Counted from the first letter of the stretch, positions 7,191-36,990 are shown. The stretch is 64,000 nucleotides of DNA from Clostridiales bacterium (GCA_019423685.1 JAHZAY010000005.1:20057-84056); one strand, 5' to 3'. Numbers and translations are program-made. The notes: generated by a model from the sequence alone, not told the origin.

Positions 7191-7742
7191 TTATACCCTC
7201 TTATAGATAATCGGGACGTCGTAACCGAAGGTGCGGTTGCCATTTACCTCCATCGACTCCGAAACTTCCAGCTGCTCTTCAGAAAAACGCTCAAACAGGG
7301 AGAACTTGAGTACCGGAGAGAACATGCTCTCGCTGCCACCTTCCCACACGCCGTCGTGTTCACGGTACAAAGCGGGCGTAAATTTCGCCGACGGTTTTAA
7401 ATCGGAATAGGCTACCGGCTTCAGATTTTCCGCTGTAAAGCTGTCCTTGTCATATCCTTCCGGCATCTCATAGGAGGTAAGCTGGATTCCTCCCTCCTCC
7501 TCGGTAAACAAAAACAGATGCGGGGAAGCGTTGGTTCTGTCCCCAACGGTGTAGTAGCTCTCTTCCAGTACAAATACCCCTGCAAAGCCTTCCGGCAGGC
7601 CGGTAATCTTGTCGTTGCAGGCAGTGTTGACGTGACGTGCCAGCGGGAATTTATCGTTTCCCTGTGCCTTCATCTGTTCATACTGCTCTGCGTTATCAAA
7701 CTTTCCTGTCAATAACTTTGTAAACTGTTGGATTGCATTCAT
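7191..7742 (-). CDS. CpcT/CpeT-like (DUF1001-type beta-barrel) protein, function unknown
   Basis: The ORF has a good RBS (AAGGAGA, 7 nt). The N-terminal LLTGKFDNAEQY resembles the L-x-G-x-F-x-N-x-x-Q signature of CpcT/CpeT-family proteins. The family call is by eye only. Confidence 0.45.
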   Translation of the reverse strand: MNAIQQFTKLLTGKFDNAEQYEQMKAQGNDKFPLARHVNTACNDKITGLPEGFAGVFVLEESYYTVGDRTNASPHLFLFTEEEGGIQLTSYEMPEGYDKDSFTAENLKPVAYSDLKPSAKFTPALYREHDGVWEGGSESMFSPVLKFSLFERFSEEQLEVSESMEVNGNRTFGYDVPIIYKRV

Positions 7743-7819
7743 TTTTCATTCTCCTTTTTTTGCTTATTTTCCACACTCGATCGTTTAATCGGTGGAATTA
7801 TCTTTTTTTCTCAACTATA

Positions 7820-10224: not shown

Positions 10225-10233
10225 CGCAGCCTC

Positions 10234-10824
10234 CTACCAGCTGATCTTCTCGCCCGGATGCACAATCAGGCGGTTCGGGGCGGCAAAGCTCTCCGCTGCC
10301 TGCTGGGAAAAGAGCTGGCCTGGGGCCATGTGGACGGGGACATTGTGCTTTGCACCGATCAGCTCGGCGCAGTGTGCTGCCTCTTTTGCATCCATGTTGT
10401 ACACTCCGTCGATCGGCAGGAACGCATAGTCGATCTGCTCACCCGACATCGTGTGCATCTGCTCTGTCTCGGAGGTGTCGCAGGCAATGTAGAGTTTCTT
10501 TCCTTCCACCTCAATCAGAAAACCCACGCACTGGTTTTTGGGATGATTTTTGTTGTAGGCCTCGGTGCCGCGCACCGTGACGTCGCCGACTGTGAAGGTG
10601 CGGTATTGTGCGCCATCGATAAAGTCGGTTTCGCGCAGGATTTTGCCTTCCGGCTTCAGGGTGACCAATCCAACCTGATTGTGGTCGCCGTGTTCGTGGG
10701 AAACCAGCACCAGATCTGCCGGCAGATCATAGCCCTCTCCCGCAAATGGGTCAACATACACTGTGACCCCTTGATCGCTGACAAGGCGGTAACTTCCGTG
10801 TCCCTGATACAAGAGTTCTGTCAT
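10234..10824 (-). CDS. MBL-fold metal-dependent hydrolase (UPF0173-like)
   Basis: VYVDPFAGEGYDLPADLVLVSHEHGDHN carries the H-x-H-x-D-H metallo-beta-lactamase motif. The stop lies 9 nt before the citC start. Confidence 0.8.
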   Translation of the reverse strand: MTELLYQGHGSYRLVSDQGVTVYVDPFAGEGYDLPADLVLVSHEHGDHNQVGLVTLKPEGKILRETDFIDGAQYRTFTVGDVTVRGTEAYNKNHPKNQCVGFLIEVEGKKLYIACDTSETEQMHTMSGEQIDYAFLPIDGVYNMDAKEAAHCAELIGAKHNVPVHMAPGQLFSQQAAESFAAPNRLIVHPGEKISW

Positions 10825-10855
10825 TAAAAAACCTCCTTAAATAGATTATGGTTCC

Positions 10856-10884
10856 ATTATACCAGCAAGGTAAGTTTATTTCTA
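10856..10884 (-). promoter_or_regulatory. putative promoter of the MBL-citC-citXG operon
   Basis: On the minus strand: TAGAAA, 17 nt spacer, then TGgTATAAT (extended -10), about 30 nt upstream of the ATG at 10824. Confidence 0.4.
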
Positions 10885-10987
10885 TTCTTTCTTTTTGAAT
10901 TCTTTCCTTTCTTTGTGTTATAAAAAAGGGGCTATCTTTGGGTACCACGCATCACGACAAAATTTTTTAAGCTGCCTTATGTGTCTT

Positions 10988-11025
10988 AAAAAAGAAAAGT
11001 CCCGAAAGGCGGTGCCTTTCGGGAC
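10988..11025 (-). terminator. intrinsic terminator ending the glutamate-fermentation operon
   Basis: On the minus strand the hairpin gtcccgaaagg ... cctttcgggac is followed by ttttctttttt, just downstream of the citF stop. Confidence 0.8.
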
Positions 11026-11037
11026 AAAAAGCAATCG

Positions 11038-12450
11038 TTATTTTACCGAATGGATGACATCCAGCAGGCTGCCGTCGCGGTAGAGGACATTCGCGACAAC
11101 CTTCTGGCCCATGTGAACCGGCTTTGGTACACCGGCAAGCTCCTCTGCCATCTGCTTGAGATCCTCGATCTCCACAACAGGCAGCTTAGCCGCTTTGAGC
11201 TTCTCTTTGAGCTCCACATTCTTGCCATACTTGGTGTTGACTGCAATGCCGCGCTGGGTAACGACAACATCCACCGTCTTGCCTGGGGTGGAGATGCACA
11301 GGCATCTGTCCACTACCAGCGGCAGTCTTGCACGGGTCAGCGGTGCAATGATGATTGCCAGCTTTGCACCTGCTGCGGTGTCGCAGTGTCCGCCGGAACC
11401 GCCCATAATGTAGCCGTTAGAATCGGTGTGGACGTTGACATTAAAGTCCAGATCCACCTGGGTGGCACCGAGAAGGACAACGTCCAGATTGTCTACGCCC
11501 GCGCTCTTTCCGCTGACGCCCGCATACTGGGTTGCAGAAACTTCCATGTGTTTGGGGTTGGTGCGGATCGATTCTACTGCCTTCAGATCAAAGCACTGTA
11601 CATCCAAGAGCGCCTCAAAGCAGCCCTCGTTGAGCATATCGACCATGTAGCCGGTGATGCCGCCCATGCCGTAGCTGCCCTTGATGCCCTTTTCCAGCAT
11701 CATGTCCTTGACATATTTTGCGGTGGCCAAAGTTGCACCGCCTGCACCGGTCTGGAAGGAGAAACCATCTTTGAGCAGACCGGATGCCTCGATAACCTTG
11801 GAGGCATAGCTTGCCATCTTCAGGCCAACTGGGTCGCGGGTAATCTTGGTGGTACCGGAAACGATACCTGCCGGGTTGCCGATCTGGTCAACCTTAACCA
11901 CATAGTCGACATAGACCTCCGGAATGGAGAAGCCGACTAACGGATACGCTACCAGGTTATCGGTGACGACGACAACCTTCTTTGCGTTCATTGCATCAGC
12001 AAACGCATAGCCGATGGAACCGCAGGCAGAAGGTCCAACCTTACCGGTGCAGTTGCCCATATCATCGGCTGTCGGCGCAGCGATGAAGGCCACATCGATG
12101 ACCGAAGTGCCCTTCTCCATATCGGAGGCTCTGCCGCCGTGGCTGCGGAAAACAACCGGCTTATCCATCAAGCCCTCCGAGATGGCCTTGCCCACCTTGG
12201 CGCCCATATAGTTGCACTCCAGGCCGGTGACCACGCCATTTTTAATGTGGCCGATGATCGGCTCATGGATATCAAAGATCGAGCTTGCGTTGACGGTCAG
12301 GTTCTTGATGCCCATCTTGGCAATCTCGTCCAGCACCATGTTCAGCACATAGTCGCCGTTGCGCATGTGGTGGTGGAAAGAAATGGTCATGCCGTCGCGC
12401 AGCTCACATTTTTCAATTGCTTCTCTAATAGATGCTACTAACTTACTCAT
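11038..12450 (-). CDS. citF: citrate/citramalate lyase alpha subunit (CitF homologue, CoA-transferase component)
   Basis: The N-terminus MSKLVASIREAIEKCELRDGMTISFHHHMRNGD and overall length match CitF. I chose the ATG at 12450 (SD GGAGAGGTGGA), which overlaps the citE stop. Confidence 0.85.
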   Translation of the reverse strand: MSKLVASIREAIEKCELRDGMTISFHHHMRNGDYVLNMVLDEIAKMGIKNLTVNASSIFDIHEPIIGHIKNGVVTGLECNYMGAKVGKAISEGLMDKPVVFRSHGGRASDMEKGTSVIDVAFIAAPTADDMGNCTGKVGPSACGSIGYAFADAMNAKKVVVVTDNLVAYPLVGFSIPEVYVDYVVKVDQIGNPAGIVSGTTKITRDPVGLKMASYASKVIEASGLLKDGFSFQTGAGGATLATAKYVKDMMLEKGIKGSYGMGGITGYMVDMLNEGCFEALLDVQCFDLKAVESIRTNPKHMEVSATQYAGVSGKSAGVDNLDVVLLGATQVDLDFNVNVHTDSNGYIMGGSGGHCDTAAGAKLAIIIAPLTRARLPLVVDRCLCISTPGKTVDVVVTQRGIAVNTKYGKNVELKEKLKAAKLPVVEIEDLKQMAEELAGVPKPVHMGQKVVANVLYRDGSLLDVIHSVK

Positions 12451-24544: not shown

Positions 24545-24680
24545 GTGTTCAGAACAAAAGAAAAGGACCTGATGGGACGAAGATCCCAGAGAGCTCCCAG
24601 TCGGGGGTTCCGGTTCAAAGAAACGATCCCCTTCCTTTGTTCATAGAACAGTGAACATAGATGAAATGGAGGAATGTTTT

Positions 24681-25130
24681 ATGTTACTGCCTAGCATCTT
24701 TGGTGAAAATTTGTTCGATGATTTTGATAACTTCAATTTTAATAGAGCGCTTAACCGCATGAACCACGAGCTGTACGGCAAACACAGCCACAACATGATG
24801 AAGGCCGATGTACGCGAGACCGAGAACAGCTACGAGCTGGATGTCGACCTGCCAGGCTTCAAGAAAGATGAGATTAAGGTAGAGTTGGACAACGGTTACC
24901 TGAATATCTCCGCTTCCAAGGGTCTGGACAAAGACGAGGAGAACAACAAAGGCGAGTACATCCGCCGCGAGCGCTATGCCGGTGCGATGAGCCGCAGCTT
25001 CTATGTCGGCGAGCAGTTGACCCAGCAGGATGTCAAAGCAAAATTTGAGGATGGCATCCTGAGAATCAGCATCCCGAAGAAGGAAGAACAGCAGCAGGTT
25101 GCACAGGATAAACACATTGCTATTGAATAG
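24681..25130 (+). CDS. Hsp20/alpha-crystallin family small heat-shock protein, copy 1
   Basis: The alpha-crystallin domain reads DVRETENSYELDVDLPGFKKDEIKVELDNGYLNISA ... FEDGILRISIPKK. GGAGGA lies 7 nt upstream of the ATG at 24681. Confidence 0.9.
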   Translation: MLLPSIFGENLFDDFDNFNFNRALNRMNHELYGKHSHNMMKADVRETENSYELDVDLPGFKKDEIKVELDNGYLNISASKGLDKDEENNKGEYIRRERYAGAMSRSFYVGEQLTQQDVKAKFEDGILRISIPKKEEQQQVAQDKHIAIE

Positions 25131-25201: not shown

Positions 25202-25648
25202 ATGTTACCAACCCTGTTTAGAGACAATCTTTTCGATGATATGTTTAACTTTGACGACTTTGACAAAGAGATGGACCGCATGATGAGACCGCTGTACGGC
25301 AAACATGCGCAGAACGTCATGAAGACCGATGTGCGTGAGACCGAGAACAGCTATGAGCTGGACATCGACCTGCCAGGCTTCAAGAAGGATGAGATCAAGG
25401 TAGAGCTGGACAACGGCTACCTGAGCATCTCCGCTTCCAAGGGTCTGGACAAGGACGAAGAGAACAACAAGGGCAAATATATCCGCCGCGAGCGCTATGC
25501 TGGCGCAATGAACCGTACCTTCTACGTCGGCAATCATCTGACCCAGCAGGATATCAAGGCAAAATTTGAGGACGGTATCCTGAAGATCAGCGTACCAAAG
25601 AAGGATGTTCAGCAGGTTGCTGCCAACAAGCACATCGCCATTGAATAG
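25202..25648 (+). CDS. Hsp20/alpha-crystallin family small heat-shock protein, copy 2 (tandem duplicate)
   Basis: The core is nearly identical to copy 1 at both protein and DNA level. It has the same GGAGGAATG-N-ATG translation start context, and no terminator lies between the copies. Confidence 0.9.
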   Translation: MLPTLFRDNLFDDMFNFDDFDKEMDRMMRPLYGKHAQNVMKTDVRETENSYELDIDLPGFKKDEIKVELDNGYLSISASKGLDKDEENNKGKYIRRERYAGAMNRTFYVGNHLTQQDIKAKFEDGILKISVPKKDVQQVAANKHIAIE

Positions 25649-26534: not shown

Positions 26535-27710
26535 TTATTTTGCTGCTGCCTGTGCTGCTTCTGCTGCCTCAACCTCTACCTTCTTCTGCTCATACAGCTT
26601 TGCAATCATCTCCAGCTTGTCTGGGATGGCAATCATCTGTGGGCACTTGGTGGTGCAGGACATGCAGCGGACACAGTGCTCCGCGCCATTGCCGTGTGCA
26701 ACGACCTCTTTGTAGTCATTGACAAAGGATTTCTCCTTGCCAAAAATCTTATAGCGGGAATAGATCGCAAAGATCTCCGGGATATCGACTCCCATCGGGC
26801 AATCCATGCAGTACCGGCAGCCGGTGCACGGAATCTCGTTTACCTTGCGGATTTCCTCAACTACCTTCGCAACAGCTTCCAGTTCCTTGTCGTTCATTGG
26901 CTCAAAGTTGGTCATGGTGGCGACGTTGTCGATCAGCTGCTGCTCATCGCTCATACCGCTGAGTACAACGGCAACCTGTGGCAGCGACTCAACCCAGCGG
27001 ATAGCCCAGCTGGCGATCGAGCGGTTTGGCTCCATATCCAGGAACGGTTTTGCGCGCTGTTCGTCGATGGTGGCAAGGTAACCGCCGCGTACCGGCTCCA
27101 TAACCATAACCGGCAGGTTGCGTTTTTCCAGCTCGCGGTAGAGCTGCTCTGCGCCCTGGTTCTGCCAATCCAGATAGTTCAGCTGAATCTGGACGAAATC
27201 CCAGTCATAATCGTTGAGAATTTGGGTGAATACCTGATAGGTGTCGTGGAAGGAGAAGCCCAGGTGTTTGATCTTGCCCTGACGCTTCATCTCCTGCAAG
27301 AACTCTACGCAATGCAGATCTTTGACCTTCTTGTAGTGGTTGCGGTTTAAGCTATGTACCAGATAAAAGTCGATGTAGTCGGTCTTGAGGGTTTTCAGCT
27401 GGTTTTCAAAGCGGCGCTTCATGTCCTCCTCATCCTCGCAGACCCAGATGCTCATCTTGTCTGCAATATAGAAGGTGCTGCGGTCGTAATTTTCAAACGC
27501 CTTTCCAAAAATCTTCTCGGATTCGCCCTTATGATAGACCATCGCGGTATCAAAATAGTTGATACCCATCTCGTACGCTTTGTGCAGCAAATCTACTGCC
27601 GCATCAAAATCTACTTCATCGCCGTTCTTTGGGAAGCGCATGCCCCCGTAACCCAGACGGGAGATCTCCAGTCCCAATGTTGGAATCATTCTGCGGTCGA
27701 TCATATTCAT
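26535..27710 (-). CDS. aldo/keto reductase with a C-terminal 4Fe-4S ferredoxin-type domain
   Basis: The AKR N-terminus reads LGLEISRLGYGGMRFP ... GINYFDTAMVY. The C-terminus carries CTGCRYCMDCP and CVRCMSCTTKCP cysteine clusters. The ATG at 27710 follows AAGGAGA. Confidence 0.85.
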   Translation of the reverse strand: MNMIDRRMIPTLGLEISRLGYGGMRFPKNGDEVDFDAAVDLLHKAYEMGINYFDTAMVYHKGESEKIFGKAFENYDRSTFYIADKMSIWVCEDEEDMKRRFENQLKTLKTDYIDFYLVHSLNRNHYKKVKDLHCVEFLQEMKRQGKIKHLGFSFHDTYQVFTQILNDYDWDFVQIQLNYLDWQNQGAEQLYRELEKRNLPVMVMEPVRGGYLATIDEQRAKPFLDMEPNRSIASWAIRWVESLPQVAVVLSGMSDEQQLIDNVATMTNFEPMNDKELEAVAKVVEEIRKVNEIPCTGCRYCMDCPMGVDIPEIFAIYSRYKIFGKEKSFVNDYKEVVAHGNGAEHCVRCMSCTTKCPQMIAIPDKLEMIAKLYEQKKVEVEAAEAAQAAAK

Positions 27711-27879
27711 TCTCTCCTTGCTTCTTAAGAGTGACTCCCGCCCCACAGGCAGGAATCCTGCACCTTTATCCTACCACAAAATCGCCTCCATGTAAAATGG
27801 CAGCTTCTCAAAAAGACAAAAGAATGTAAACATTCCTAAAATTTACACCCATTCCCACCTCCCTTGTGCACAGAAAAGA

Positions 27880-27908
27880 TTGACCTTTCCCGACAGGTGG
27901 TTTAAAAT
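27880..27908 (+). promoter_or_regulatory. putative sigma-A promoter of rpe
   Basis: TTGACC (27880-27885), 17 nt spacer, then TAAAAT (27903-27908). Confidence 0.5.
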
Positions 27909-27995
27909 AAAATGGAATTCATTTGCCTGTCGGGCAGCAGCTTGTTGCAGAGCCTCTCCCGACTCCATCGTCTTTGAAGAAAGGTCGTGCCCTTT

Positions 27996-28640
27996 ATGAT
28001 AAAAGTTTCCCCCTCCATCCTCTCCGCCGATTTTTCCTGCTTGGGTGAGCAGGCCCGCAAAATGCAGCAGGCGGGCGCACCCTGGCTGCACATCGACGTC
28101 ATGGACGGCCACTTTGTTCCCAACATCTCCTTCGGCGCACCGGTTATGAAGTGCATCCGCAAGGATTTTGACGGCGTATTCGACGTCCACCTGATGATCA
28201 GCGATCCGCTGCGCTATGCACAGGACTTCGCCAAGGCCGGCGCCGACATCATCACCTTCCATCTGGAATCGGACAGCGACCCGGACGCCACCATTGCGCA
28301 CATCCACGAGCTGGGCTGCAAAGCCGGCATCTCCATCAAACCTGGCACTCCCGCCGAGGCGGTCAAGCCCTATCTCGATCGCGTGGAGATGGTGCTGGTG
28401 ATGACCGTTGAACCGGGATTTGGCGGACAGAAATTTATGACCGATATGATGCCAAAGGTATCGGCGATCCGCCAATGGATCACCGATACCGGCCGCGAAA
28501 TCGACCTGCAGGTAGACGGCGGCGTCAACGCTGAAACGGCCAAAGTATGCAAACAGGCCGGGGCCAATGTACTGGTGGCCGGTTCCTACCTGTTCTCTAA
28601 AGAGGACTATGCTGCGGCCATCAAAACTTTGATCGACTAG
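27996..28640 (+). CDS. rpe: ribulose-phosphate 3-epimerase
   Basis: SPSILSADFSCLGEQ, LHIDVMDGHFVPNISFG, VMTVEPGFGGQKF and VDGG motifs are all present. Confidence 0.9.
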   Translation: MIKVSPSILSADFSCLGEQARKMQQAGAPWLHIDVMDGHFVPNISFGAPVMKCIRKDFDGVFDVHLMISDPLRYAQDFAKAGADIITFHLESDSDPDATIAHIHELGCKAGISIKPGTPAEAVKPYLDRVEMVLVMTVEPGFGGQKFMTDMMPKVSAIRQWITDTGREIDLQVDGGVNAETAKVCKQAGANVLVAGSYLFSKEDYAAAIKTLID

Positions 28641-28849
28641 CTGCAAAGCTGCTCTGCGCCCGGCGCCGCCCTTTGCAGTTGTGTCCCCTTGCCCTTCCCT
28701 CTTCCGGCAGGGCCTGTAAGCGGCGCAGCAAAAAGTACGCTTGATCACCTTCCTACAAAATGGAATGCTGGCAAGCTGTTGGCTTAGCCACAGGCCGGCA
28801 CGGGGCAGTTCCCCACCTTCCATCACACTGAAAGGAGTTATTTCTCTTC

Positions 28850-29905
28850 ATGTCTCTGTTACAGTGGCTGACTACCGGCTCTTTTAACGGCATCTATCTT
28901 GAACAGATGAAGGAACCGGCCCTTTCTCGGCCCTTCCTGCATTTTTTCAGCAGTGCTACCATCCAGAGCAAACCGATCCACCACGGATATGACCTGTCCC
29001 ATCCGCTCAGCTGCGAGCAACTGGCCGATGTCGCCCGTCAGGCGGGCATCATCGACGAACACGACGGAAAGCCGCTGGCGGACAAGATCCTTCACGCTGC
29101 GCGGCAAAAAATTTCTGCGGTCTGCGTCGACGCCATCGACGACGAACCCTATGTCTCCAGCCAAATCAATCCCCTGCTGCATTGCAGCAGCCAGATTGTG
29201 CGCGCAGCCAATTGGATCAGCTCTGCATTGGATGTGAGCGAACGATTTATCGCAATCTATAAAAACATGTCTGCACTGGACACCAAAATTCCTTCCTTCA
29301 TCGACGGCGTAGAGGTGCGCCGGATGCAGGGACGTTACCCAATGGAAATCCGTGCTTTCCGAAGCTTTAAAAATGCGACCTTTATTGCAGGGGCCGCAAG
29401 CCTCCTGCACCTTTACCGCGCCGTCACCGAAGGACGCGCACAGACCACCTCGTTTGTCACCGTCGCGGGCAACTGCGTCGGCACGCCCCGCAACTACGAG
29501 GTCACCATCGGCACCCCTGTTTCGGTGCTGCTGGAGCGCTGCGGCCTCATTCAGTCGCCTTCGATTATTGTAGAGGGCGGCGCCATGCGCGGCATTGCGC
29601 TGGATGACCCGGACCACACCGCCATCCGTCCCAGCACTAGCTCCATTCTGGTCTTCCACGTCGACCGGCAGGAACAGCTGTACAGCTGCATCGGCTGCGG
29701 GCGCTGTATCGAAGCCTGCCCCTCCGGCCTCAACCCTCAGAAGCTTTACCGCTGTGTGACCACCAATCACAAACAGACCGCTCTGAGCCTTGGAATCCAA
29801 AACTGCATCGGCTGTGCCAGCTGCAGTTATATCTGCCCTTCCCGCCTGGACCTGGCACACAACATTGTTCAGGCAAAACTCCGGCTTTCCCCAGACCCGG
29901 AATAA
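28850..29905 (+). CDS. RnfC-like protein lacking the nucleotide/FMN-binding glycine-rich motifs (SLBB plus 2x[4Fe-4S] retained)
   Basis: The C-terminal CIGCGRCIEACP and CIGCASCSYICP ferredoxin motifs match the RnfC C-terminus. The region that aligns with the RnfC GxGGAGFP and INGAECEPY segments reads IIDEHDGKPLADKI and CVDAIDDEPY. It is about 90 aa shorter than canonical RnfC. Confidence 0.7.
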   Translation: MSLLQWLTTGSFNGIYLEQMKEPALSRPFLHFFSSATIQSKPIHHGYDLSHPLSCEQLADVARQAGIIDEHDGKPLADKILHAARQKISAVCVDAIDDEPYVSSQINPLLHCSSQIVRAANWISSALDVSERFIAIYKNMSALDTKIPSFIDGVEVRRMQGRYPMEIRAFRSFKNATFIAGAASLLHLYRAVTEGRAQTTSFVTVAGNCVGTPRNYEVTIGTPVSVLLERCGLIQSPSIIVEGGAMRGIALDDPDHTAIRPSTSSILVFHVDRQEQLYSCIGCGRCIEACPSGLNPQKLYRCVTTNHKQTALSLGIQNCIGCASCSYICPSRLDLAHNIVQAKLRLSPDPE

Positions 29906-29933
29906 AGTCCTTTCTAAAGGAGGTCCTTTACCC

Positions 29934-30911
29934 TTGTCTTCGACACGATACCACATGCCTTACATCCGGCACTCCGATGCCGCCCGCACCATCATGGGGG
30001 ACGTCATCATCGCGCTGGCGCCGCTGTACTTTATGGCATACTTCTACTATGGCTCCCGCGTGCTGCTGTTGGCTGCTGCCGCGATCCTCAGCTGTACCGT
30101 CTGCGACTGGCTGTGCAGCCTTATCCTCTATCGCCGGATCAATTCTCGCGATCTGAGCCCTGTTGTCACCGGCCTGATTCTGTGTGCACTGATGCCGCCC
30201 ACCATCTCCTTTTCGGTGGTCGTCTGGGCATCGGTGTTCTCTATTGTGATCTGCAAGGAGCCTTTTGGCGGAAGCGGTCACAACATCTTTAACCCCGCCG
30301 CTGCCGGTCTTGCCTTCGCCACCATCTGCTGGAGCGGTCAGATGTTCTCCTACACCCAGCCGCTGCAACGGCTGCCAATTGCAATCGACAATACTGTAAC
30401 TCTGATGCAGGGTCCGACAGCCACCTTAAAACTTGGCGGCATCCCCCGTCTGGAGCTGACAGAACTGCTGCTGGGCAACTTTGCCGGCCCAATCGCCTCA
30501 ACCTTCACGCTGATCATTGCCGCGTCGCTGCTCTATCTGCTGGCGCGCAACGTAGTCAAGTGGTACTCGGTTGTCTCCTTCGTGCTGCCGGTTGCGGTGC
30601 TTGCCGCCTTCAACCACCCTTATGGCGTCAGCTCACTGGAATCGATTACCAACGAGTTGTTCGTCGGCTCGCTGTGGTTTGTTGCGGTATTCATGCTCAG
30701 CGACCCGGTCACCTCCCCGAAATATCGTCTTTCCCGCATCTTATATAACCTTTGTGCCGGCATCATGGTCATGCTGTTCCGTTATTTCAGCCCTCTGGAG
30801 CTGAGCGCTGCCTTTGCGGTGCTGCTGATGAATGCGTTGGCACCAGTATTTGACATTGCCTGCGAACAGTTGATTATCCGCCAGAAGCAGAAAGGAGGCA
30901 GCGCATCATGA
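29934..30911 (+). CDS. RnfD/NqrB-family membrane protein (divergent)
   Basis: IMGDVIIALAPL, DLSPVVTGLILCALMPPT, KEPFGGSGHNIFNPAAAG, MLSDPVTSP and LLMNALAPVFD are collinear with RnfD. The TTG at 29934 lies 10 nt after AAAGGAGG; an alternative ATG is at 29955. Confidence 0.75.
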   Translation: MSSTRYHMPYIRHSDAARTIMGDVIIALAPLYFMAYFYYGSRVLLLAAAAILSCTVCDWLCSLILYRRINSRDLSPVVTGLILCALMPPTISFSVVVWASVFSIVICKEPFGGSGHNIFNPAAAGLAFATICWSGQMFSYTQPLQRLPIAIDNTVTLMQGPTATLKLGGIPRLELTELLLGNFAGPIASTFTLIIAASLLYLLARNVVKWYSVVSFVLPVAVLAAFNHPYGVSSLESITNELFVGSLWFVAVFMLSDPVTSPKYRLSRILYNLCAGIMVMLFRYFSPLELSAAFAVLLMNALAPVFDIACEQLIIRQKQKGGSAS

Positions 30912-31558
30912 CCTTTACCCGCAAGTACGAGCGAATCCTGCGCAAAACACGCGGTATCCTCTACAAAAATCCGCTGCTCTCTCTGGGGCTGGCAATGCCT
31001 TTGGCGATCATTCCGTCCTACAATCTCACCATCACTGCCGCCGTTTGTCTATCCATGCTGATCTGCTTTGTGCCGACGGTATTCATCGCCGGCATCATCG
31101 GCAAGCGGATTGTTTCCCCATGGCAGGTGGTTGTCTACCCGTTGATTGCCTGTGTGCTGATGATTCCAACCCGCATGCTGTTGCAGATGCTCTTTCCCAT
31201 GATTCAGGACACATTGGGCATCTATTTTTCGCTGATCTGTGTCAACACCCTGCTGTTTTATGCCACCGATCACGCCGCTCAAAAGCGTCCATTGCAGGCA
31301 TTGGGACTCGGTTTGCGGCTGTGGTTTGGCGCGGCGTTGGTTGCATTGATCTGCGGAGCAATCCGCGAGATTGCCGCCACCGGGGCAATTCTTGGCGTCG
31401 TCCTCTTCCCGAACGGTTCCCACATTCCCATTGCGCAGATGGCAATGGGCGGCTTTATTCTGTTGGCTTTCTTTGCGGCGCTGTGCCGCTTGATCCATCG
31501 CAGCATCCTATGGCTAACCAAGCGGGCGGATGCAAGCAAAGGGGGTGAACAGCGATGA
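30908..31558 (+). CDS. RnfE/NqrD-like membrane protein (divergent)
   Basis: LYKNPLLSLGLAMPLAI, GIYFSLICVNTLL and ICGAIREIAATG are collinear with RnfE motifs (NPVLVQLLGLCP, IPLIVVNC, GAIREILG). The start shares an ATGA overlap with the upstream gene. Confidence 0.65.
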   Translation: MTFTRKYERILRKTRGILYKNPLLSLGLAMPLAIIPSYNLTITAAVCLSMLICFVPTVFIAGIIGKRIVSPWQVVVYPLIACVLMIPTRMLLQMLFPMIQDTLGIYFSLICVNTLLFYATDHAAQKRPLQALGLGLRLWFGAALVALICGAIREIAATGAILGVVLFPNGSHIPIAQMAMGGFILLAFFAALCRLIHRSILWLTKRADASKGGEQR

Positions 31559-32154
31559 TGACCTATCTTGCAGAATTGTCGACAGCCTTTATGACTGCGT
31601 TGGCACTGGAAAATCTGCTGTTTGCCCGCGCCATCGACATTCCCCGCCTGTATGAGCGGCGATCCATTCAACAGATTGTCTACATCGGACTTACCCTTAC
31701 CGTCATCAACGCTGTTGGCGCGATACCTTCCTACTTTGTCAACCGCTTCTTAGGCTCCAAACCGCCGCTTTCTGACTTCATGACTCCGGCACAGCTTTGT
31801 GTCAACATTCTGGTCTTATTGGTAATTTATTTCCTCATCCGCCGTTTCTCGCCAAAACTGTTCAGTAGAATCGGGGAAAGTTTACCTTTTTATGGAGTCA
31901 ACTGCGTCACCTTGGGCACCCTGATGGTTGCATCGAGAATGAGCAGCAGCACAAACTTCTTTTTCTTCTTCGGTTACTGTGTGGGAGCAGGCGTTGGTTT
32001 TATGGTCGCACTTCTTTTGTTGTGGTCGGTTCGCCAGCGCCTTTCGATGACCCGCATTCCTAAAACATTCCGCGGCTTACCAATCACGTTGCTTTCTCTT
32101 GGCATCATTTCGCTTGCGCTGTTCGGCCTGCTGGGCAACCAGCTGCCGGCATAA
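31555..32154 (+). CDS. RnfA/NqrE-like membrane protein (divergent)
   Basis: LPFYGVNCVTLG and RIPKTFRGLPITLLSLGIISLALFGL parallel the RnfA motifs LPLITTNCAVLG and [25 protein letters not shown]. The start shares an ATGA overlap with the upstream gene. Confidence 0.7.
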   Translation: MMTYLAELSTAFMTALALENLLFARAIDIPRLYERRSIQQIVYIGLTLTVINAVGAIPSYFVNRFLGSKPPLSDFMTPAQLCVNILVLLVIYFLIRRFSPKLFSRIGESLPFYGVNCVTLGTLMVASRMSSSTNFFFFFGYCVGAGVGFMVALLLLWSVRQRLSMTRIPKTFRGLPITLLSLGIISLALFGLLGNQLPA

Positions 32155-32178
32155 AGTGCGCGCTCGGGAGGGATTATT

Positions 32179-33381
32179 ATGGGAAGACCTTACAAGATCA
32201 AACGTCACAAACAGATTTACCGCCGCTCGACGGGCAGTGTGGTGCTGCGCGTTTTGGTGATTGTGGTGGCCATCGCCGCCCTGTTTGCCCTTGGATGGGC
32301 ACTGTACGCCCCGGTCAGCAACTGGATCGCCCAGCGGCAAAACCAAACTCCTCAGCAGACAATCGGTTCTTCCGACGAACAACAGTCGCAGGAAGAGATG
32401 GTGCCCGGCGCATCGCAGACCGAGGAAGATCTGCCCCAAGCGGAGGAACAGCCTGTTTCCTCGACTTCCGCTATGACCGCCTACCTGCCGCCTGAAACGG
32501 TGCAGGACAGTGCCGCCTTCTCCTCTGCCTTAACCGCGGCAAAGGATGCCGGCTACGACAGCATCCTGATCGACCTGAAAACCGATGACGGCACAGTCAC
32601 CTACTCCATCCAGTACAACGAAACTACCGATGCGCGCGTCACCACCACGACGCCGATCGATCTTGCCTCCACAGTCCAGCAAATTCGCGACGCGGGCCTT
32701 ATGCCAGTGGCCTCGATCCACACCTTCCGCGATCACCTGTATCCGTCCGTCGATCACGATGCAGCTACCTGGTACCTTGATTCCAGCTCGCTGTGGCTGG
32801 ACAATTCTCCAGACAACGGCGGTCGCGTTTGGATGAATCCCTTCTCGGACGCTGCACAAAACTACATCCAGAAGATTGTGGACGACGCCTGCAACGCCGG
32901 ATTTGAAGAAATTATCCTGCAAGATGTACAATTCCCTGAGGGCTACTCGCTGGATATGATCGACTACTTCGAACATGCCGGGGATGACAAACACGCCTTC
33001 TTGCAGCAGTACATTGCGCAGATGACCGAATACGCTGCGGGCAAAGGGGTGGAGCTGACAGCCCTGTTCCCCGCCACCAGCATGCTGGGTGGGGAGAGCG
33101 ACATGTACTTCGGCGACACGACCGACCTTGTCTCGGGCACCGTGGCAATCGATCTGCGGGACAGCGTCTTTGGTACCGGACTGCAAAATGACCAGATTTC
33201 CATCCCCGATCCGGGAGCAGACCCCTACAACACGGTGCGCACCGCCGCCGCAGCACTGCGCGAAAAGCTGCCGAACACCCAAATCATCGCTCTGCTCGAC
33301 GCCGACGGCGTTGCCGAGCGCACCGAGGCGGCCGCACAGAGCGACATTGTGCGCTACATCGTCTACTCTCCGACCTTCTAA
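32179..33381 (+). CDS. membrane-anchored putative glycoside hydrolase-like protein (DUF4015/GHL-type TIM-barrel)
   Basis: It has an N-terminal TM helix (VVLRVLVIVVAIAALFALGWALYAPV), then a Q/E/S-rich linker. Next comes a domain with ILIDLKTDDGTVTY ... HTFRDH ... WMNPF ... GFEEIILQDVQFPEG, resembling the DUF4015 pattern (ViDvKdd.G ... FkD ... WvnP ... GFDEIqfDYvRFP). The gene starts 24 nt after the RnfA-like gene. Confidence 0.55.
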   Translation: MGRPYKIKRHKQIYRRSTGSVVLRVLVIVVAIAALFALGWALYAPVSNWIAQRQNQTPQQTIGSSDEQQSQEEMVPGASQTEEDLPQAEEQPVSSTSAMTAYLPPETVQDSAAFSSALTAAKDAGYDSILIDLKTDDGTVTYSIQYNETTDARVTTTTPIDLASTVQQIRDAGLMPVASIHTFRDHLYPSVDHDAATWYLDSSSLWLDNSPDNGGRVWMNPFSDAAQNYIQKIVDDACNAGFEEIILQDVQFPEGYSLDMIDYFEHAGDDKHAFLQQYIAQMTEYAAGKGVELTALFPATSMLGGESDMYFGDTTDLVSGTVAIDLRDSVFGTGLQNDQISIPDPGADPYNTVRTAAAALREKLPNTQIIALLDADGVAERTEAAAQSDIVRYIVYSPTF

Positions 33382-33447: not shown

Positions 33448-33722
33448 CCTTATATGAACGGGAGCGGGGCGCGCCCTTTGCCCGACACTCTATCCTATGC
33501 TTTCTTCGGGCAATTGGCAAAAGTCTCCCCGACGCTCCGCACAGTTCTATCCCTTTCCACATCACAGATCGGCCGCGGTTTTGCCCTGTTTCACCCCCGC
33601 TTTTTTTACGCAGGAGCGGGCAGAATTTTTTTCGTCCCACCGCAATTGTCTCCGTTCTCCCCTCGCTTTCTTTTTTGTCCGATACCCCCCCTTTTTGCAA
33701 ATCCCCCTTAAAAAAGCTCTGC

Positions 33723-33819: not shown

Positions 33820-34269
33820 TTATTGGGCGCTCTCCTGTTTCTCCAACAGGCTGTGGTAGCGTTCGAGCATCTGTCCCAAGGTGATCCGCTGCATCTGCTG
33901 TTGCACCGCTTTTGCAATCTCCTCATAGGGCTCGCGCAGCACTTCGGCAATATTGCGCCCTACCGGACACAGCGGCGAAGGGGCCGGGTGCAGCCCGATC
34001 AACCGTTCAAGACCCTGTGGCTCCAGCGCGTGATAAACCTCCCACAGCGTCACCTGATCGGGAGAAACCGCCATCGTCGCGCCGCCGACACCGCGGGCAA
34101 TGTGAATAATTCCCGCCTTTTGCAGCGCACCCAGAAGGCTGCGGATGGCAGCCGGATTGCAGCCGGTTGTTTTGGAAAGCAATTCGCTGGTGACCCGAAC
34201 CTGCTGGCCATATTCGGCAATAAAGATTAAACAGTGCATCGCGATAGAACTTTTTGTACTGATTTTCAT
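33820..34269 (-). CDS. Rrf2 family transcriptional regulator
   Basis: MKISTKSSIAMHCLIFIA ... TSELLSKTTGCNPAAIRSLLGALQKAGII is the Rrf2 HTH. The ATG at 34269 follows GAGGGA by 6 nt. Confidence 0.85.
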   Translation of the reverse strand: MKISTKSSIAMHCLIFIAEYGQQVRVTSELLSKTTGCNPAAIRSLLGALQKAGIIHIARGVGGATMAVSPDQVTLWEVYHALEPQGLERLIGLHPAPSPLCPVGRNIAEVLREPYEEIAKAVQQQMQRITLGQMLERYHSLLEKQESAQ

Positions 34270-34419
34270 TTTCAATCCCTCTATACAAATAAACCTTGTC
34301 TTTATTATACGGTATTTACACCGGATTGTAAACGAAAATTGTTTGCCCCCACCGGTCTTGTTCGTACCCTCTAAAGAATACCCTCTGTTCCAATGCTGTG
34401 TTTTGGGATATACAGCAAC

Positions 34420-34446
34420 AAAAGCCGCCCCGGTGGGGCGGCTTTT
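34420..34446 (-). terminator. intrinsic terminator of perR-rbr
   Basis: Hairpin aaaagccgcccc / ggggcggctttt, with a T-run on the minus strand just after the rbr stop. Confidence 0.8.
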
Positions 34447-34471
34447 GTTTTATTTTGTCTTTTAAACCAGA

Positions 34472-35008
34472 TTAATAGTTCTGTGCTCTGAGCTCGAAGT
34501 ATGCCTTTGGATGTGCGCATACCGGGCAAACTTCCGGCGCTTCCTCGCCGAAGTGGATATGTCCGCAGTTGCGGCAGATCCAAGCCTTTTTGCCTTCGCG
34601 GTTGAATACTTTGCCTTCCTCGATGTTCTTGCACAGAGCTTTGTAGCGCTCCTCGTGCTCTTTCTCGATGGCAGCTACGCCCTCGAAGAGGTTTGCAATG
34701 TGATCGAAGCCCTCTTCTCTTGCCTCTTTTGCGAAGGTAGCATACATATCGGTCCACTCATAGTTCTCGCCGGCAGCTGCATCTTTGAGGTTGTCTACGG
34801 TCTTGCCGATGCCGCCGTTGAGGAGCTTAAACCACATTTTTGCGTGCTCTTTTTCGTTGTTGGCAGTCTCGGTAAAGATCGCAGAGATCTGCTCAAAGCC
34901 CTCTTTTTTAGCCTGGGAAGCGTAGTAAGTGTACTTGTTTCTTGCCTGGGATTCTCCTGCAAATGCAGCCTGCAAATTTTTCTCAGTCTTTGTTCCTTTG
35001 AGTTCCAT
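34472..35008 (-). CDS. rbr: rubrerythrin
   Basis: The ferritin-like diiron motifs are ESQARNKY and NEKEHAKMW. The C-terminus has a rubredoxin-like CRNCG ... CPVC. Confidence 0.9.
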
Positions 35009-35040
35009 AGTGATAGTTCCGCCTTTCTTTGTAAAATCGT

Positions 35041-35445
35041 TTATTTAGACTCTTCTTTCTGGCAGCTTCGACAGATACCCCAGGCCCGAATCTGGACCTC
35101 CTGTACCTGTGCGCCGACCTGTGCAAACGTGGCTTTCAGCGACTCCGTCTCCCTCCCAACATCGCACGGCAGGTCAAATACTCCGCCGCACTGGGTACAG
35201 ATCAGATGTGGGTGCATGGTGGTCACCGCGTCAAAGCGATCTCCGCCAATGCCGGTATGGATGCGCCGCAGCAGCCCCATCTCCTCCAGAATGTTTAGAT
35301 TCCGGTAAACCGTCCCCAGGCTGATCTCGGGAAGCTGTTCTTTTACTGTGAGGTAAACTTCCTCCGCGTTTGGGTGCTCATGAGAGGCCTTCACCGCGTC
35401 ATACACAAGCGTCCGCTGACGTGAATTTCTTCTTTGTTCCGCCAT
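35041..35445 (-). CDS. perR: Fur family repressor, probably PerR
   Basis: The Fur-family HTH reads [11 protein letters not shown] ... HPNAEEVY ... [19 protein letters not shown], with CxxC ... CxxC pairs (CTQCG, CRSC). It is co-transcribed with rbr, as in clostridial perR-rbr units. Confidence 0.75.
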
Positions 35446-35688: not shown

Positions 35689-35717
35689 TTGACAGCATGC
35701 ACACTCTTCGATATAAT
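35689..35717 (+). promoter_or_regulatory. sigma-A promoter of rplJ-rplL
   Basis: Consensus TTGACA (35689-35694), 17 nt spacer, then TATAAT (35712-35717). Confidence 0.75.
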
Positions 35718-35987
35718 AATAAAGCTGTCAATTCCAAAGACAGCAGGTGCAAATGCAAAACAGCATTGCTTAAAGCAAGCCTGCCGAGGAAATGATGAGA
35801 AAGTATTATGACTTTTCATCTGCTCTTTTGCCTCGGAGCGTCATGCTTTGAGGAAAAAGGGCTTTTTTAATTTTTCGGGTGATCCGAAAAAGCAACCCTT
35901 TTTCGGAGCGGCGATTTGCATCGAATCCGCGCCGCGGCCTCCCCCAAAAAGGACCGCGCACAAACATTTTTCAGGAGGTGAACTGAT
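35718..35987 (+). ncRNA. rplJ 5' leader (probable L10(L12)4 autoregulatory leader)
   Basis: A structured untranslated region of about 270 nt lies between a consensus promoter and rplJ. It has several hairpins and U-rich tracts, for example gccgagg ... cctcggag and gggctttttt. The position is as expected for the Firmicute L10 leader. The motif itself was not verified by a covariance model. Confidence 0.45.
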
Positions 35988-36539
35988 TTGCCTAACGAAA
36001 AGGTTTTACTCGAAAAACAGCAGTATGTTGCCGAGCTCAAAGACAAACTCGCAAACGCTGCTGCCGGTGTCCTGGTAGATTACAAGGGCATCACCGTAGC
36101 TGACGACACCAAGCTCCGTAAAGAGCTGCGTGAAGCTGGCGTTGAGTACCGTGTTGTAAAGAACACCATGCTCCGCCTGGCACTGAAGGACACTCCTTAC
36201 GAGGAGATCTCCAACGTGCTGGAAAACACCACCGCGATCGCAATCTCCCCGGAGGACCCGATCGTCGCTGCAAAAATCATCTGCAAATACATCGAGGGCG
36301 CTAAGAGCTCTTACGCTGTAAAAGCTGGTTTTGCAGATGGCAAACCGATGGATAAAGCTGGCGTTGAGACCCTGTCCAAACTGCCGAACAAGGAAGGCCT
36401 CGTTTCCATGTTGCTCAGCGTACTCACTGGCAACCTCAGAGGTCTGGCTGTTGCAATCAAAGCAATCGGCGAGAAGAAAGAGGAAGAGGCTGGCGCACCT
36501 GCCGAGGCTGCTACTGCTGAGGCTTCTGCTGCTGAATAA
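35988..36539 (+). CDS. rplJ: 50S ribosomal protein L10
   Basis: The TTG start follows AGGAGG. KQQYVAELKDKLANAAAGVLVDYKGITVADDTKLRKELREAGVEYRVVKNT is the L10 signature. Confidence 0.95.
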   Translation: MPNEKVLLEKQQYVAELKDKLANAAAGVLVDYKGITVADDTKLRKELREAGVEYRVVKNTMLRLALKDTPYEEISNVLENTTAIAISPEDPIVAAKIICKYIEGAKSSYAVKAGFADGKPMDKAGVETLSKLPNKEGLVSMLLSVLTGNLRGLAVAIKAIGEKKEEEAGAPAEAATAEASAAE

Positions 36540-36615
36540 TCCATCATCCGCACTGCATTGTGGCTAAAATGGCCACAGCACTGAATTTGAAAATTTACAT
36601 TATGGAGGTACTATC

Positions 36616-36990
36616 ATGGCTTCTGAGAAAGTTTTAGCATTTGTTGAGAATGTTAAAGAACTGACTGTTCTTGAGCTTGCTGAGCTCGTAAAAGCACTGG
36701 AAGAAGAATTTGGCGTTTCTGCCGCTGCTCCTGTTGCTGTAGCTGCCGCTCCGGCTGCTGCTGCTGCTGAGGAGGAGAAGACCGAGTTTGACGTAATCCT
36801 GAAGAGCGCAGGTGGCTCCAAGATGGGCGTTATCAAACTGGTTAAAGAGATCACCGGCCTGGGCCTGAAAGAGGCTAAAGCTCTGGTTGACGAGTGCCCG
36901 AAACCGATCAAAGAGGGCATTTCCAAAGCTGACGCTGAGGAGATCAAGACCAAACTGGAAGAGGCTGGCGCTGAGGTAGAACTCAAGTAA
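36616..36990 (+). CDS. rplL: 50S ribosomal protein L7/L12
   Basis: It has the Ala-rich hinge and the C-terminal domain [10 protein letters not shown] ... [24 protein letters not shown] ... [18 protein letters not shown]. Confidence 0.95.

Follow-up and report, generated by a model that had tools for sequence, protein, structure and literature searches.

Rnf complexes consist of the subunits RnfCDGEAB and have been solved from C. tetanomorphum (7ZC6), A. woodii (9ERI) and A. vinelandii (8AHX). Their [2Fe-2S] ligands are C25 and C113 of RnfA and C25 and C108 of RnfE, and RnfD is flavinylated at T156 and contacts riboflavin through N123 and D249 (PMC11889175). The superfamily also holds reduced members. 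NqrA is a cofactor-free homologue of RnfC that still serves as a cap, structural or of unknown function, on the RnfD/NqrB-type subunit (PMC12174285), and two-subunit Nqr/Rnf-like systems occur in Actinobacteria and CPR (Meheust et al. 2021, PMC8238504; PMC11334425). Here we analyze a clostridial module that encodes homologues of RnfC, RnfD, RnfE and RnfA; the literature searched and NCBIfam hold no description of it.

Gene order, family membership and spread of the module

The window, the whole 64,000-nucleotide stretch analyzed, carries on its plus strand a C-like gene (RnfC-like, 28850-29905, 351 aa), a D-like gene (RnfD-like, 29955-30911, 318 aa from ATG 29955), an E-like gene (RnfE-like, 30908-31558, 216 aa), an A-like gene (RnfA-like, 31555-32154, 199 aa) and a DUF4015 gene (PF13200, 32179-33381, 400 aa). 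The D-like protein probably starts at TTG 29934 (325 aa), which is preceded by the ribosome-binding site AAAGGAGG, rather than at ATG 29955. All reading frames are intact; D overlaps E, and E overlaps A, by the 4 nt ATGA. The order [rpe]-C-D-E-A-DUF4015 is that of clostridial rnfCDGEAB with G removed and the DUF4015 gene in the place of rnfB. The upstream gene rpe (27987-28640, plus strand), encoding ribulose-phosphate 3-epimerase, scores 279 bits with TIGR01163 against a cutoff of 213. With a promoter-like site ahead of rpe (27880-27908) and no terminator-like site found between rpe and the C-like gene, rpe and the module are possibly co-transcribed in the window; a terminator-like hairpin 3' of the DUF4015 gene (33596-33620, plus strand), detected by a consensus scan only, is a possible end of the operon. 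In L001-L012, L015, L020 and L021, which are all the loci with upstream sequence, rpe precedes the module. This conserved adjacency counts against the DUF4015-coupled reading that we favor below, which leaves it without explanation. A search for Rfam elements upstream of the module, metal-responsive riboswitches included, returned none.

The D-like protein matches PF03116 (E 1.9e-72), its only Pfam content, and the E-like and A-like proteins match PF02508 (E 2e-20 and 8e-23), all above gathering scores, which places the three in the Rnf/Nqr superfamily, whereas the C-like protein passes Pfam cutoffs only for SLBB and several Fer4 domains. Rnf subunits are the best PDB matches for all four proteins, yet each falls far below the cutoff of its NCBIfam model: 157 bits against 246 for rnfC, 175 against 207 for rnfD, 36 against 213 for rnfE and 78 against 229 for rnfA. 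Scores with the nqr models are likewise far under their cutoffs. D-like proteins share 34-48% identity with one another and 24-33% with canonical RnfD, a divergence similar to that between clostridial RnfD and E. coli RsxD.

An E-like profile (E<=1e-10) matches 456 representatives of 50%-identity clusters, and named genomes carrying the module belong to Negativibacillus, Ruminococcaceae and Oscillospiraceae (Clostridia). All complete genes are intact across 20 related loci, which repeat the same ligand states at 27-82% identity, and dN/dS is 0.11-0.21 for each of the five genes (C, D, E, A and DUF4015). The module is conserved in many gut Clostridia and represents an ancient lineage of Rnf/Nqr paralogues, probably a neo-functionalised one whose job differs from that of Rnf.

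The complement of subunits is also reduced. phmmer searches of the window and 18 related loci, for which RsxG, RsxB and Ftp of E. coli served as queries, found no homologue of RnfG (or of NqrC/RnfG type), RnfB or Ftp, and in the annotated gene contexts there were no FMN_bind or ApbE Pfam domains and, by domain search rather than with an NqrF query, no NqrF-type NAD-binding domain (PF00175). Genes for RnfG, RnfB or ApbE could lie elsewhere in the genome, a point against the reading that we favor below.

Cofactor ligands in the four Rnf-like proteins

Ligand identities were taken from PMC11889175 and PMC12174285, and losses were called from pairwise HMMER alignments to solved Rnf/Nqr chains, from MAFFT and from HH-suite (hhalign), three methods that agree. 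A preliminary description of this locus, based on alignment by eye, had proposed that the redox ligands are largely lost; the three methods bear this out in that the ligands are absent and not shifted, and the substitutions recur among orthologues at the 20 related loci.

The C-like protein aligns with the solved RnfC chains 8ahx_C, 7zc6_C and 9eri_C (HMMER, E 5e-29 to 4e-19), but only from chain residue ~118-128, corresponding to C-like residue 53-58, and it is ~85-145 aa shorter than they are. As the preliminary description held, its FMN/NADH motifs are gone and both ferredoxin motifs are kept. DEHDGK-P stands where RnfC has G(L/M)GGAxFP, and DAIDDEPY where it has N(G/A)xECEPY, within the acidic stretches IIDEHDGKPLADK (29048-29086) and DAIDDEPYVSSQ (29129-29164). 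A NuoF-like FMN/NADH site is not recognized by PF01512 either, whose match of 20.5 bits stays under the cutoff of 31.2. The two CxxCxxCxxxCP motifs, C280-P291 (29687-29722) and C319-P330 (29804-29839), provide the ligands of two [4Fe-4S] clusters as in RnfC, and all eight cysteines (C280/283/286/290 and C319/322/325/329) are invariant among 14 orthologues. Invariant in the same set are C209 and C231 as well as D69, E70, G73, K79, D94, D97, D98, E99 and P100, which include the D/E-rich motifs DE(H/R)D and DxDDE. An invariant acidic motif in the former FMN/NADH pocket implies a new site and not mere degeneration. In one lineage, L015, rpe, a mecA-like gene, D, E, A and DUF4015 are present and no C-like gene was found within 8 kb; given this lineage, the C-like subunit is most likely accessory.

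In the D-like protein, hhalign (probability 100) pairs A. woodii T156 with G153 (30411-30413), and both this profile-profile alignment and MAFFT set the canonical VTTAT-PL against LMQG-PT. No orthologue has Thr at the flavinylation position by hhalign or MAFFT, and the Asp and Ala context of Dxx(s/t)gA(T/S) is absent as well. The claim that flavinylation is impaired was thus right as to the loss and wrong as to the register, for the 'TAT' then taken as the remains of the flavinylation motif sits past the conserved Pro and is variable (PTAAL in L003). The riboflavin-contacting residues are retained as N113 (within 30288-30308) and D250 (within 30699-30722), equivalent to A. woodii N123 and D249, the Asn in 17/17 loci and the Asp in 16/17; both are kept even in L015.

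The E-like and A-like proteins align with 7zc6_E (E 9e-10) and 7zc6_A (E 2.8e-18), respectively, by HMMER. GMCP of RnfE reads GLAMP in the E-like protein, with Ala29 for Cys (within 30986-31006), and VVNC reads CVNT, with Thr114 for Cys (within 31235-31249). Cys111, three residues ahead of Thr114, is new and clade-specific. In the A-like protein LGICP has become AIDI-P, which lacks the Cys (AIDIP, 31630-31644), and TNC has become VNC, in which Cys117 is kept (GVNCV, 31894-31908). Of the four canonical [2Fe-2S] cysteines the window therefore has one and lacks three, in agreement with the preliminary count, and some orthologues lack all four. Across the loci, the first and second canonical cysteines are each found in 0/18 E-like proteins, and in 0/17 and 13/17 A-like proteins, respectively. 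Among 122 full-length E-like representatives of 50%-identity clusters, the C108 position is Cys in one and Ser/Thr in 91, and the Asn before it persists in 89.

The DUF4015 partner gene and a proposed role of the module

The linked DUF4015 gene, which lies outside 28850-32154, is the strongest functional clue. It is directly 3' of the A-like gene in 17/17 loci with downstream sequence, and its product belongs to PF13200 (E 1.7e-25, 90.2 bits against a Pfam cutoff of 27). A conserved basic cytoplasmic tail (32182-32226) and a single transmembrane helix (32239-32316) are followed by a disordered acidic linker and a predicted extracytoplasmic glycoside-hydrolase-like TIM barrel. The tail motif (Y/F)K(I/V)K(R/H)xxxxYR and residues of the helix are conserved even in distant orthologues, which would be unusual in a plain membrane anchor. 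On the basis of gene order and this conserved anchor, we propose that the DUF4015 protein is a fifth component of the complex. Its AF2 model (pLDDT 81.8) alternates strand and helix elements, and the best Foldseek matches are the C. difficile wall protein Cwp19 (5oq3), 4s1a and TM1410, together with GH20 enzymes; Cwp19 is the closest solved fold, yet TM-scores are only ~0.5. By sequence, 4s1a is matched with E 2.5e-8. The candidate catalytic acid (D/E five residues before a conserved FP) is Gln in the clade of the window, and the ecto-domain may therefore be no hydrolase here. The material searched contained no DUF4015 member with demonstrated activity. Elsewhere DUF4015 is fused to a YkyA domain; fusions of YkyA with polysaccharide-deacetylase domains occur too, and YkyA as the stand-alone protein PdcF interacts with one such domain (PMC12700454).

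With no RnfG or RnfB found in the window or the 18 loci, and with the sites for NADH/FMN in RnfC, for covalent FMN in RnfD and for the intramembrane [2Fe-2S] cluster in RnfA/E lost, the module should be incapable of the U-shaped electron path from ferredoxin to NAD+ by which Rnf drives ion pumping. On the strength of gene linkage and similarity of fold we favor, with moderate confidence, a reading in which the D-E-A core is an ion/solute-conducting or conformational-coupling unit that serves an extracytoplasmic glycan enzyme, with the Fe-S subunit as accessory redox input. The membrane core would be re-used without redox gating, as an ion or solute pathway or for conformational coupling. The A/E pair would act as an inverted-repeat, alternating-access unit, its central cluster site now formed by Ala/Gly and Ser/Thr beside the kept Asn. 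The DUF4015 protein would dock onto the D-E-A complex through its basic tail and transmembrane helix, and the substrate of its TIM-barrel ecto-domain would be a glycan of the cell envelope. Coupling might resemble the FtsEX-type control of wall hydrolases or consist in uptake of what the enzyme produces. With its two [4Fe-4S] clusters and new invariant acidic pocket, the C-like subunit could be the cytoplasmic input, for redox sensing or for a short path from Fe-S to riboflavin. The preliminary description had suggested a scaffold or ion-conducting role or a very different cofactor set; a broken electron path is upheld, with some redox capacity left, as the eight Fe-S cysteines and the riboflavin residues are kept. 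A redox-sensing role or a short Fe-S-to-riboflavin path from the C-like subunit may persist.

The strict invariance of the Fe-S cysteines and the near-invariant riboflavin Asn and Asp speak against the conducting or coupling reading and favor persisting redox chemistry. Such chemistry could take the form of a shortened electron-transfer complex, in which electrons pass from reduced ferredoxin or another donor through the two [4Fe-4S] clusters of the C-like subunit to non-covalent riboflavin in the D-like subunit and on to a membrane or extracytoplasmic acceptor, or in reverse, with a catalytic site newly formed in the acidic pocket that took the place of FMN, and with no ion pumping by A/E. 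C209 and C231, invariant together with the eight cysteines in 14 orthologues, fit this scheme, as do the riboflavin contacts (residue roles from PMC11889175), an FMN pocket swapped for an invariant motif without drift, and the precedent of a two-subunit RnfD-like protein that lacks the flavinylation Thr and seems to have a non-covalent flavin site (PMC11334425). We nevertheless consider it rather unlikely: no acceptor-side carrier is evident once RnfG, the RnfD FMN site and the A/E cluster are missing, purifying selection on the E-like and A-like proteins is left without explanation, and the Asn and Asp kept in L015, which has no C-like gene nearby, may be structural. Rpe is a metal-dependent enzyme in E. 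coli, and the module might be an Rnf-derived transporter of a metal cation (e.g. Fe2+ or Mn2+) or another small cation, with the C-like acidic pocket as a cytoplasmic metal site and the link to rpe reflecting metal supply. The invariant DE(H/R)D and DxDDE motifs, the constant adjacency of rpe and the Ser/Thr and Asn at the former E-like cluster site agree with this idea, although the support is circumstantial throughout, the upstream region has neither a metal-responsive riboswitch nor any further Rfam element, and the invariable DUF4015 partner is not accounted for; we judge it quite improbable.

Two further readings are contradicted by the data. A canonical Rnf, its ligands missed through faulty alignment by eye and its rnfG and rnfB encoded elsewhere, might be argued from the Pfam Rnf/Nqr families of the D-, E- and A-like proteins and from the PDB matches. 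It becomes very improbable given the accord of three independent alignment methods on the losses, NCBIfam scores far under cutoff for all four proteins and a clade whose distance from clostridial RnfD matches that of E. coli RsxD; moreover, ligand mutations in A. woodii abolish activity and growth (PMC11889175). The loss of several cofactor sites and two subunits could likewise be expected of an rnf operon remnant decaying under relaxed selection, but we give this hardly any credence in view of the low dN/dS, intact, translationally coupled reading frames in the window, complete genes intact in 20 related loci, invariant replacement motifs and a family that spans hundreds of 50%-identity clusters. 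Thus the losses are conserved, selected features and neither artefact nor decay, and it is reasonable to read the module as serving something else than electron transfer from ferredoxin to NAD+, for instance ion/solute conduction or scaffolding.

Relation to known systems

Rnf and the module have homologous C, D, E and A proteins, and the two share the clostridial-type gene order, two [4Fe-4S] clusters in C, the riboflavin Asn and Asp of RnfD and, mostly, the Asn ahead of the second cluster Cys in A/E. Unlike Rnf, a complex of six subunits, the module lacks RnfG and RnfB (window and 18 loci), the RnfC FMN/NADH motifs and the flavinyl-Thr of RnfD, its set of four [2Fe-2S] cysteines is incomplete, and a gene for a DUF4015 ecto-domain is invariably attached. 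NqrA sets a precedent for an RnfC-type subunit that persists after the loss of redox cofactors; it has lost the Fe-S clusters too, whereas the C-like protein retains both. Na+-NQR has the NqrD/E [2Fe-2S] cluster, both covalent FMNs and NqrC and has gained NqrF, none of which the module has. The two-subunit systems are, like the module, partial Rnf/Nqr derivatives, and their RnfD-like protein also lacks the flavinylation Thr and seemingly keeps a non-covalent flavin site. This protein is fused, however, to an NqrF-type PF00175 domain and paired with a flavinylated RnfG/NqrC-like protein and ApbE, neither of which holds for the module, and the systems, which belong to other phyla, include neither DUF4015 nor homologues of C, E or A.

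With the DUF4015/GHL-type TIM barrels (4S1A Cthe_0052, Cwp19 5OQ3, TM1410 2AAM) the partner protein shares the PF13200 domain and the fold, the latter at a TM-score of ~0.5 to Cwp19 and with a candidate acid residue that is not conserved in the clade of the window. FtsEX, which is of the ABC type, ATP-driven and not homologous to the module, would be an analogue in working principle only: there, a transporter-derived membrane complex passes a cytoplasmic input to an extracytoplasmic wall hydrolase by conformational change and not by substrate transport.

Gene order and extent of the family

We find five closely packed ORFs on one strand at 28850-33381 of the window. The C-like gene (28850-29905, +, 351 aa) is followed by the D-like gene, read from ATG as 29955-30911 (+, 318 aa). 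The start of the D-like gene is more likely the TTG at 29934, behind AAAGGAGG, yielding a predicted protein of 325 aa, which is the length of database protein P0207, 99% identical to the D-like protein. The E-like gene (30908-31558, +, 216 aa) and the A-like gene (31555-32154, +, 199 aa) come next, with ATGA overlaps of 4 nt at both the D/E and the E/A junctions, and the DUF4015 gene (32179-33381, +, 400 aa) closes the series. Upstream, rpe (27987-28640) is separated from the C-like gene by 210 nt, in which a consensus scan detected no terminator-like site; a promoter-like site 5' of rpe and a terminator-like hairpin at 33596-33620 are consensus matches only. An Rfam scan of the window and seven loci revealed no riboswitch or leader upstream of the module. 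Two long antisense ORFs (28859-29956, -, 365 aa; 27843-28826, -, 327 aa) overlap the C-like gene and rpe; no homology was seen to support them, and they are probably artefacts of G+C-rich coding sequence.

A profile of the E-like protein led to 10 genome loci, and in all 10 tblastn places homologues of the C-, D-, E-, A-like and DUF4015 proteins in the same order, with rpe upstream. The family is large: when all 1.84 billion cluster representatives were scanned by HMMER with the E-like profile, 1310 matched at E<=1e-3, 456 of them at E<=1e-10. Those relatives that have a name fall in Negativibacillus and uncultured Ruminococcaceae/Oscillospiraceae. All five genes show dN/dS of 0.11-0.21 (the window against two orthologues), rough values given that dS is near saturation. 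The D-like proteins are 34-48% identical within the family and 24-33% identical to canonical RnfD, while clostridial RnfD and E. coli RsxD share 32-35%, and therefore the branch is old rather than a recent degenerate copy. As the C-D-E-A order is that of the clostridial rnfCDGEAB operon with G dropped and B replaced, we infer that the module arose by duplication of an rnf operon. One further locus, L014, was rejected as a family member and left out of the family counts; it is a different Rnf-like cluster (7496-11253), without DUF4015, in which the D-like gene is split or short and the E-like protein has retained the first Cys (GLCP) but not the second (AVNS). At its A-like position lies a 196-aa protein with no Pfam match on record, followed by small proteins and DUF5058.

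The surroundings show further recurrent features. Lineages with E-like proteins of only about 27-32% identity still have rpe next to the module, and the genes upstream of rpe vary. Many lineages carry a mecA-like gene, in opposite orientation, between rpe and the first gene of the module; the window lacks it. MecA-like adaptor genes on the opposite strand are found at 5147-5719 of L011, 5290-5853 of L012, 5738-6355 of L015 and 4234-4809 of L021, related loci in other genomes. Divergent from and upstream of rpe, the window encodes an aldo/keto reductase (26535-27746, -) carrying a 4Fe-4S dicluster domain at its C-terminus. This arrangement recurs at 77-85% identity in L002-L007 and at 43% identity in the distant L011 genome, and the reductase may count as another, semi-conserved neighbour of the module. 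In L007 (N. massiliensis) a NiCo (nickel/cobalt) riboswitch, without counterpart in the window, lies at 2020-2098 (+), about 1.1 kb past the far end of the reductase gene. Directly downstream of the module is a cluster of an Rrf2 regulator, rubrerythrin and a Fur-family (PerR-like) regulator (33820-35445, -), and the rubrerythrin and Fur synteny is confined to the Negativibacillus group. The window also holds a ribosomal protein L10 leader (35716-35877, +; Rfam RF00557, 61 bits) upstream of rplJ/rplL (35988-36990) and a tandem pair of Hsp20/alpha-crystallin paralogues (24651-25130 and 25202-25648, +) with very similar C-terminal halves.

Cofactor sites of the Rnf-like subunits

In the A. woodii Rnf complex the ligands of the membrane-buried [2Fe-2S] cluster are C25 and C113 of RnfA and C25 and C108 of RnfE, T156 of RnfD carries covalent FMN, N123 and D249 of RnfD hydrogen-bond riboflavin, and RnfC binds FMN and two [4Fe-4S] clusters (PMC11889175; review PMC12174285). 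Pfam places the D-like protein in PF03116 and the E-like and A-like proteins in PF02508; the C-like protein passes Pfam cutoffs for SLBB and several Fer4 domains only, the NuoF-type FMN domain being sub-threshold. All four score far under the cutoffs of the NCBIfam Rnf models (bits against cutoff: C 157/246, D 175/207, E 36/213, A 78/229).

The preliminary description had read, by eye, a loss of most redox ligands, with a single canonical [2Fe-2S] Cys left in place. HMMER alignments to PDB chains bear this out: GMCP of RnfE is replaced by GLAMP and VVNC by CVNT in the E-like protein, LGICP of RnfA is replaced by AIDI-P in the A-like protein, where TNC corresponds to VNC, and one of the four Cys is indeed retained. 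We followed the substitutions through the loci tables and the database representatives and find them conserved among orthologues. In 122 full-length E-like representatives among the matches listed, the position of RnfE C108 is Cys in one and Ser or Thr in 91, the preceding Asn is kept in 89, and any Cys near the C25 position occurs in 14. The first Cys of the A-like protein is found in 0 of 17 places and the second in 13, with Gly, Thr or Tyr in the remaining four. A replacement site formed by E-like Cys111 (the -3 Cys of ICVN) and A-like Cys117 was considered and is not a family feature, because only 10 of the 122 representatives listed have the -3 Cys, mostly near relatives of the window's clade, and four loci have lost A-like Cys117. 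Eight E-like proteins of 420-545 aa (P0145, P0160, P0162, P0164, P0176, P0180, P0153 and P0172) bear extensions of 200-340 residues without Pfam match, and P0343 is a D-E fusion.

For the D-like protein two pairwise HMMER alignments conflict, and the register was settled by aligning a profile of 105 family members (75 after filtering) with four canonical RnfD sequences. This alignment (probability 100), supported by MAFFT, sets canonical D-x-V-T-T-A-T-P-L against N-(T)-V-T-L-M-Q-G-P-T of the window and shares a conserved Pro; Gly153 therefore occupies the position of the flavinylated Thr. The earlier reading of a partly conserved flavinylation motif thus stands as to loss, which is more complete than supposed, and fails as to register, since its 'TAT' sits two residues downstream. 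The 'TAT' itself is not conserved, being PTAAL in L003 and about 30 database proteins. The riboflavin-site residues, N113 and D250, are retained: all 17 places have the Asn, and 16 have the Asp, with Glu in the other one.

The C-like protein matches RnfC PDB chains with E-values of 5e-29 to 4e-19 (HMMER), the alignment beginning only at chain residue ~118-128, query residue 53-58. As the preliminary description had it, both Fe-S motifs are retained and the FMN/NADH motifs are gone, DEHDGK-P standing for G(L/M)GGAxFP and DAIDDEPY for N(G/A)xECEPY. The eight Fe-S Cys do not vary among 14 orthologues, the most distant of about 40% identity. Where the FMN/NADH pocket used to be, D69, E70, G73, K79, D94, D97, D98, E99, P100, S103, S104 and Q105 are invariant, and therefore the pocket has been rebuilt and not left to drift. 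Also invariant are Y137-K138-N139 and two extra Cys, C209 and C231. A single-sequence structure model of the C-like protein reached a pLDDT of 33.6. Locus L015 contains rpe and the mecA-like, D, E, A and DUF4015 genes, and no C-like gene within 8 kb (tblastn and gene table), which leaves D-E-A with DUF4015 as the invariable core and the Fe-S subunit as an accessory. With E. coli RsxG, RsxB and Ftp as queries, phmmer identified no homologue of RnfG, RnfB or ApbE in the window or 18 related loci, the sole exception being a weak Fe-S match of RsxB to C-like proteins, and the Pfam-annotated contexts contain no FMN_bind or ApbE domain.

The DUF4015 partner

The DUF4015 gene comes next after the A-like gene in all 17 places with downstream sequence (the window, L001-L012, L015 and L019-L021). 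Its protein consists of a basic N-terminal tail, one transmembrane helix, an acidic linker of ~50 residues and an α/β barrel, modelled confidently for the barrel (pLDDT 81.8) and with low predicted confidence for the linker. Scored on the query, the best structural matches reach TM-scores of about 0.4-0.5; they are Cwp19 of C. difficile (5oq3, its functional region), 4s1a, TM1410 and GH20 hexosaminidases. Cwp19 is a wall protein described as cleaving peptidoglycan, and 4s1a is an uncharacterised DUF4015 protein. The only mention of DUF4015 in the literature searched describes its fusion to a YkyA domain, which is also fused to polysaccharide-deacetylase domains; the stand-alone YkyA protein PdcF interacts with one of these (PMC12700454).

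The tail carries a motif, (Y/F)K(I/V)K(R/H)xxxxYR, that even distant orthologues retain, as they do several transmembrane residues. This conservation suggests that the tail and helix make specific contact with the membrane complex and are not a passive anchor. The basic motif, in the cytoplasmic N-terminal tail, lies at 32182-32226 of the window, and the tail may act as a docking peptide. The rebuilt, invariant pocket of the C-like subunit is acidic, but L015, where a nearby C-like gene is lacking, keeps the tail too. At the position of the acidic residue five before the conserved F-P (window 32920-32943), six distant loci have D/E, the window's clade has Gln, L015 has Ser and L010 has Ala. 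Given that this acid is not conserved, catalytic competence of DUF4015 is uncertain, and in the window's clade the barrel may be catalytically altered or inactive.

Possible functions and known systems

Decay of an rnf operon is excluded by the conservation data, and by-eye misalignment of canonical Rnf proteins by the alignment data. Given that electron entry (RnfB), the transmembrane cluster (A/E), the periplasmic shuttle (RnfG), the RnfD FMN and the NAD+ site of RnfC are absent from the module, it cannot, as judged from its sequence, be a ferredoxin:NAD+ oxidoreductase or an Rnf-type redox-driven pump. In A. woodii, activity and growth are lost when any one of these sites is mutated (PMC11889175). 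The main rival is a shortened electron conduit, in which electrons would pass from the Fe-S clusters of the C-like protein through riboflavin to an acceptor; the invariance of its Fe-S Cys speaks for this route. Given the strict link to a membrane-anchored ecto-domain, we consider that the complex most likely serves the glycan-enzyme-like DUF4015 protein. In canonical Rnf the A/E pair alternates between inward-open and outward-open states, and Na+ is bound by backbone carbonyls together with the Asn that adjoins the cluster. In the present module small or hydroxyl residues have taken the place of the cluster ligands and most members retain the Asn, which would fit an A/E pair that acts as an ion or solute pathway, or as a conformational switch no longer redox-gated. 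The complex might control DUF4015 across the membrane by an FtsEX-like logic, or might instead move the product of DUF4015 or an ion, and the Fe-S subunit would be an optional redox input. It is conceivable, if on the unlikely side, that the family is a third branch of the Rnf/Nqr superfamily, widespread in gut Clostridia, whose D-E-A core is uncoupled from transmembrane electron transfer and is instead a transmembrane coupling or transport machine for an extracellular envelope glycan enzyme (DUF4015). The Fe-S subunit, where present, would tie envelope remodelling or uptake to the cytoplasmic redox state, in the manner of a redox-gated FtsEX.

The mechanisms now proposed for Rnf and NQR turn on the [2Fe-2S] cluster that the A/E pair carries inside the membrane. 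That a large family under selection has kept the A/E fold without the cluster shows that the fold can do something else, and this family offers a natural 'cluster-less' control for models of redox-driven ion pumping. Relatives carry source names such as 'electron transport complex protein RnfD' and 'RnfE subunit', and genome-scale models of gut Clostridia may, owing to such names and to the Rnf/Nqr Pfam domains, wrongly credit these bacteria with an (extra) Rnf energy-conserving complex. The strict link gives a first functional handle on the uncharacterised DUF4015 family and points to what may be a novel form of control or transport at the envelope of Gram-positive cells. NCBIfam (June 2026) and Pfam do not set the family apart, and the literature searched contains no description of the module. 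The published Nqr/Rnf-like systems differ from it, having a two-subunit architecture and occurring in other phyla. The module is a variant inside a known superfamily, with a function that is probably new, and the loss of cofactors has a precedent there in NqrA, a cofactor-free homologue of RnfC.
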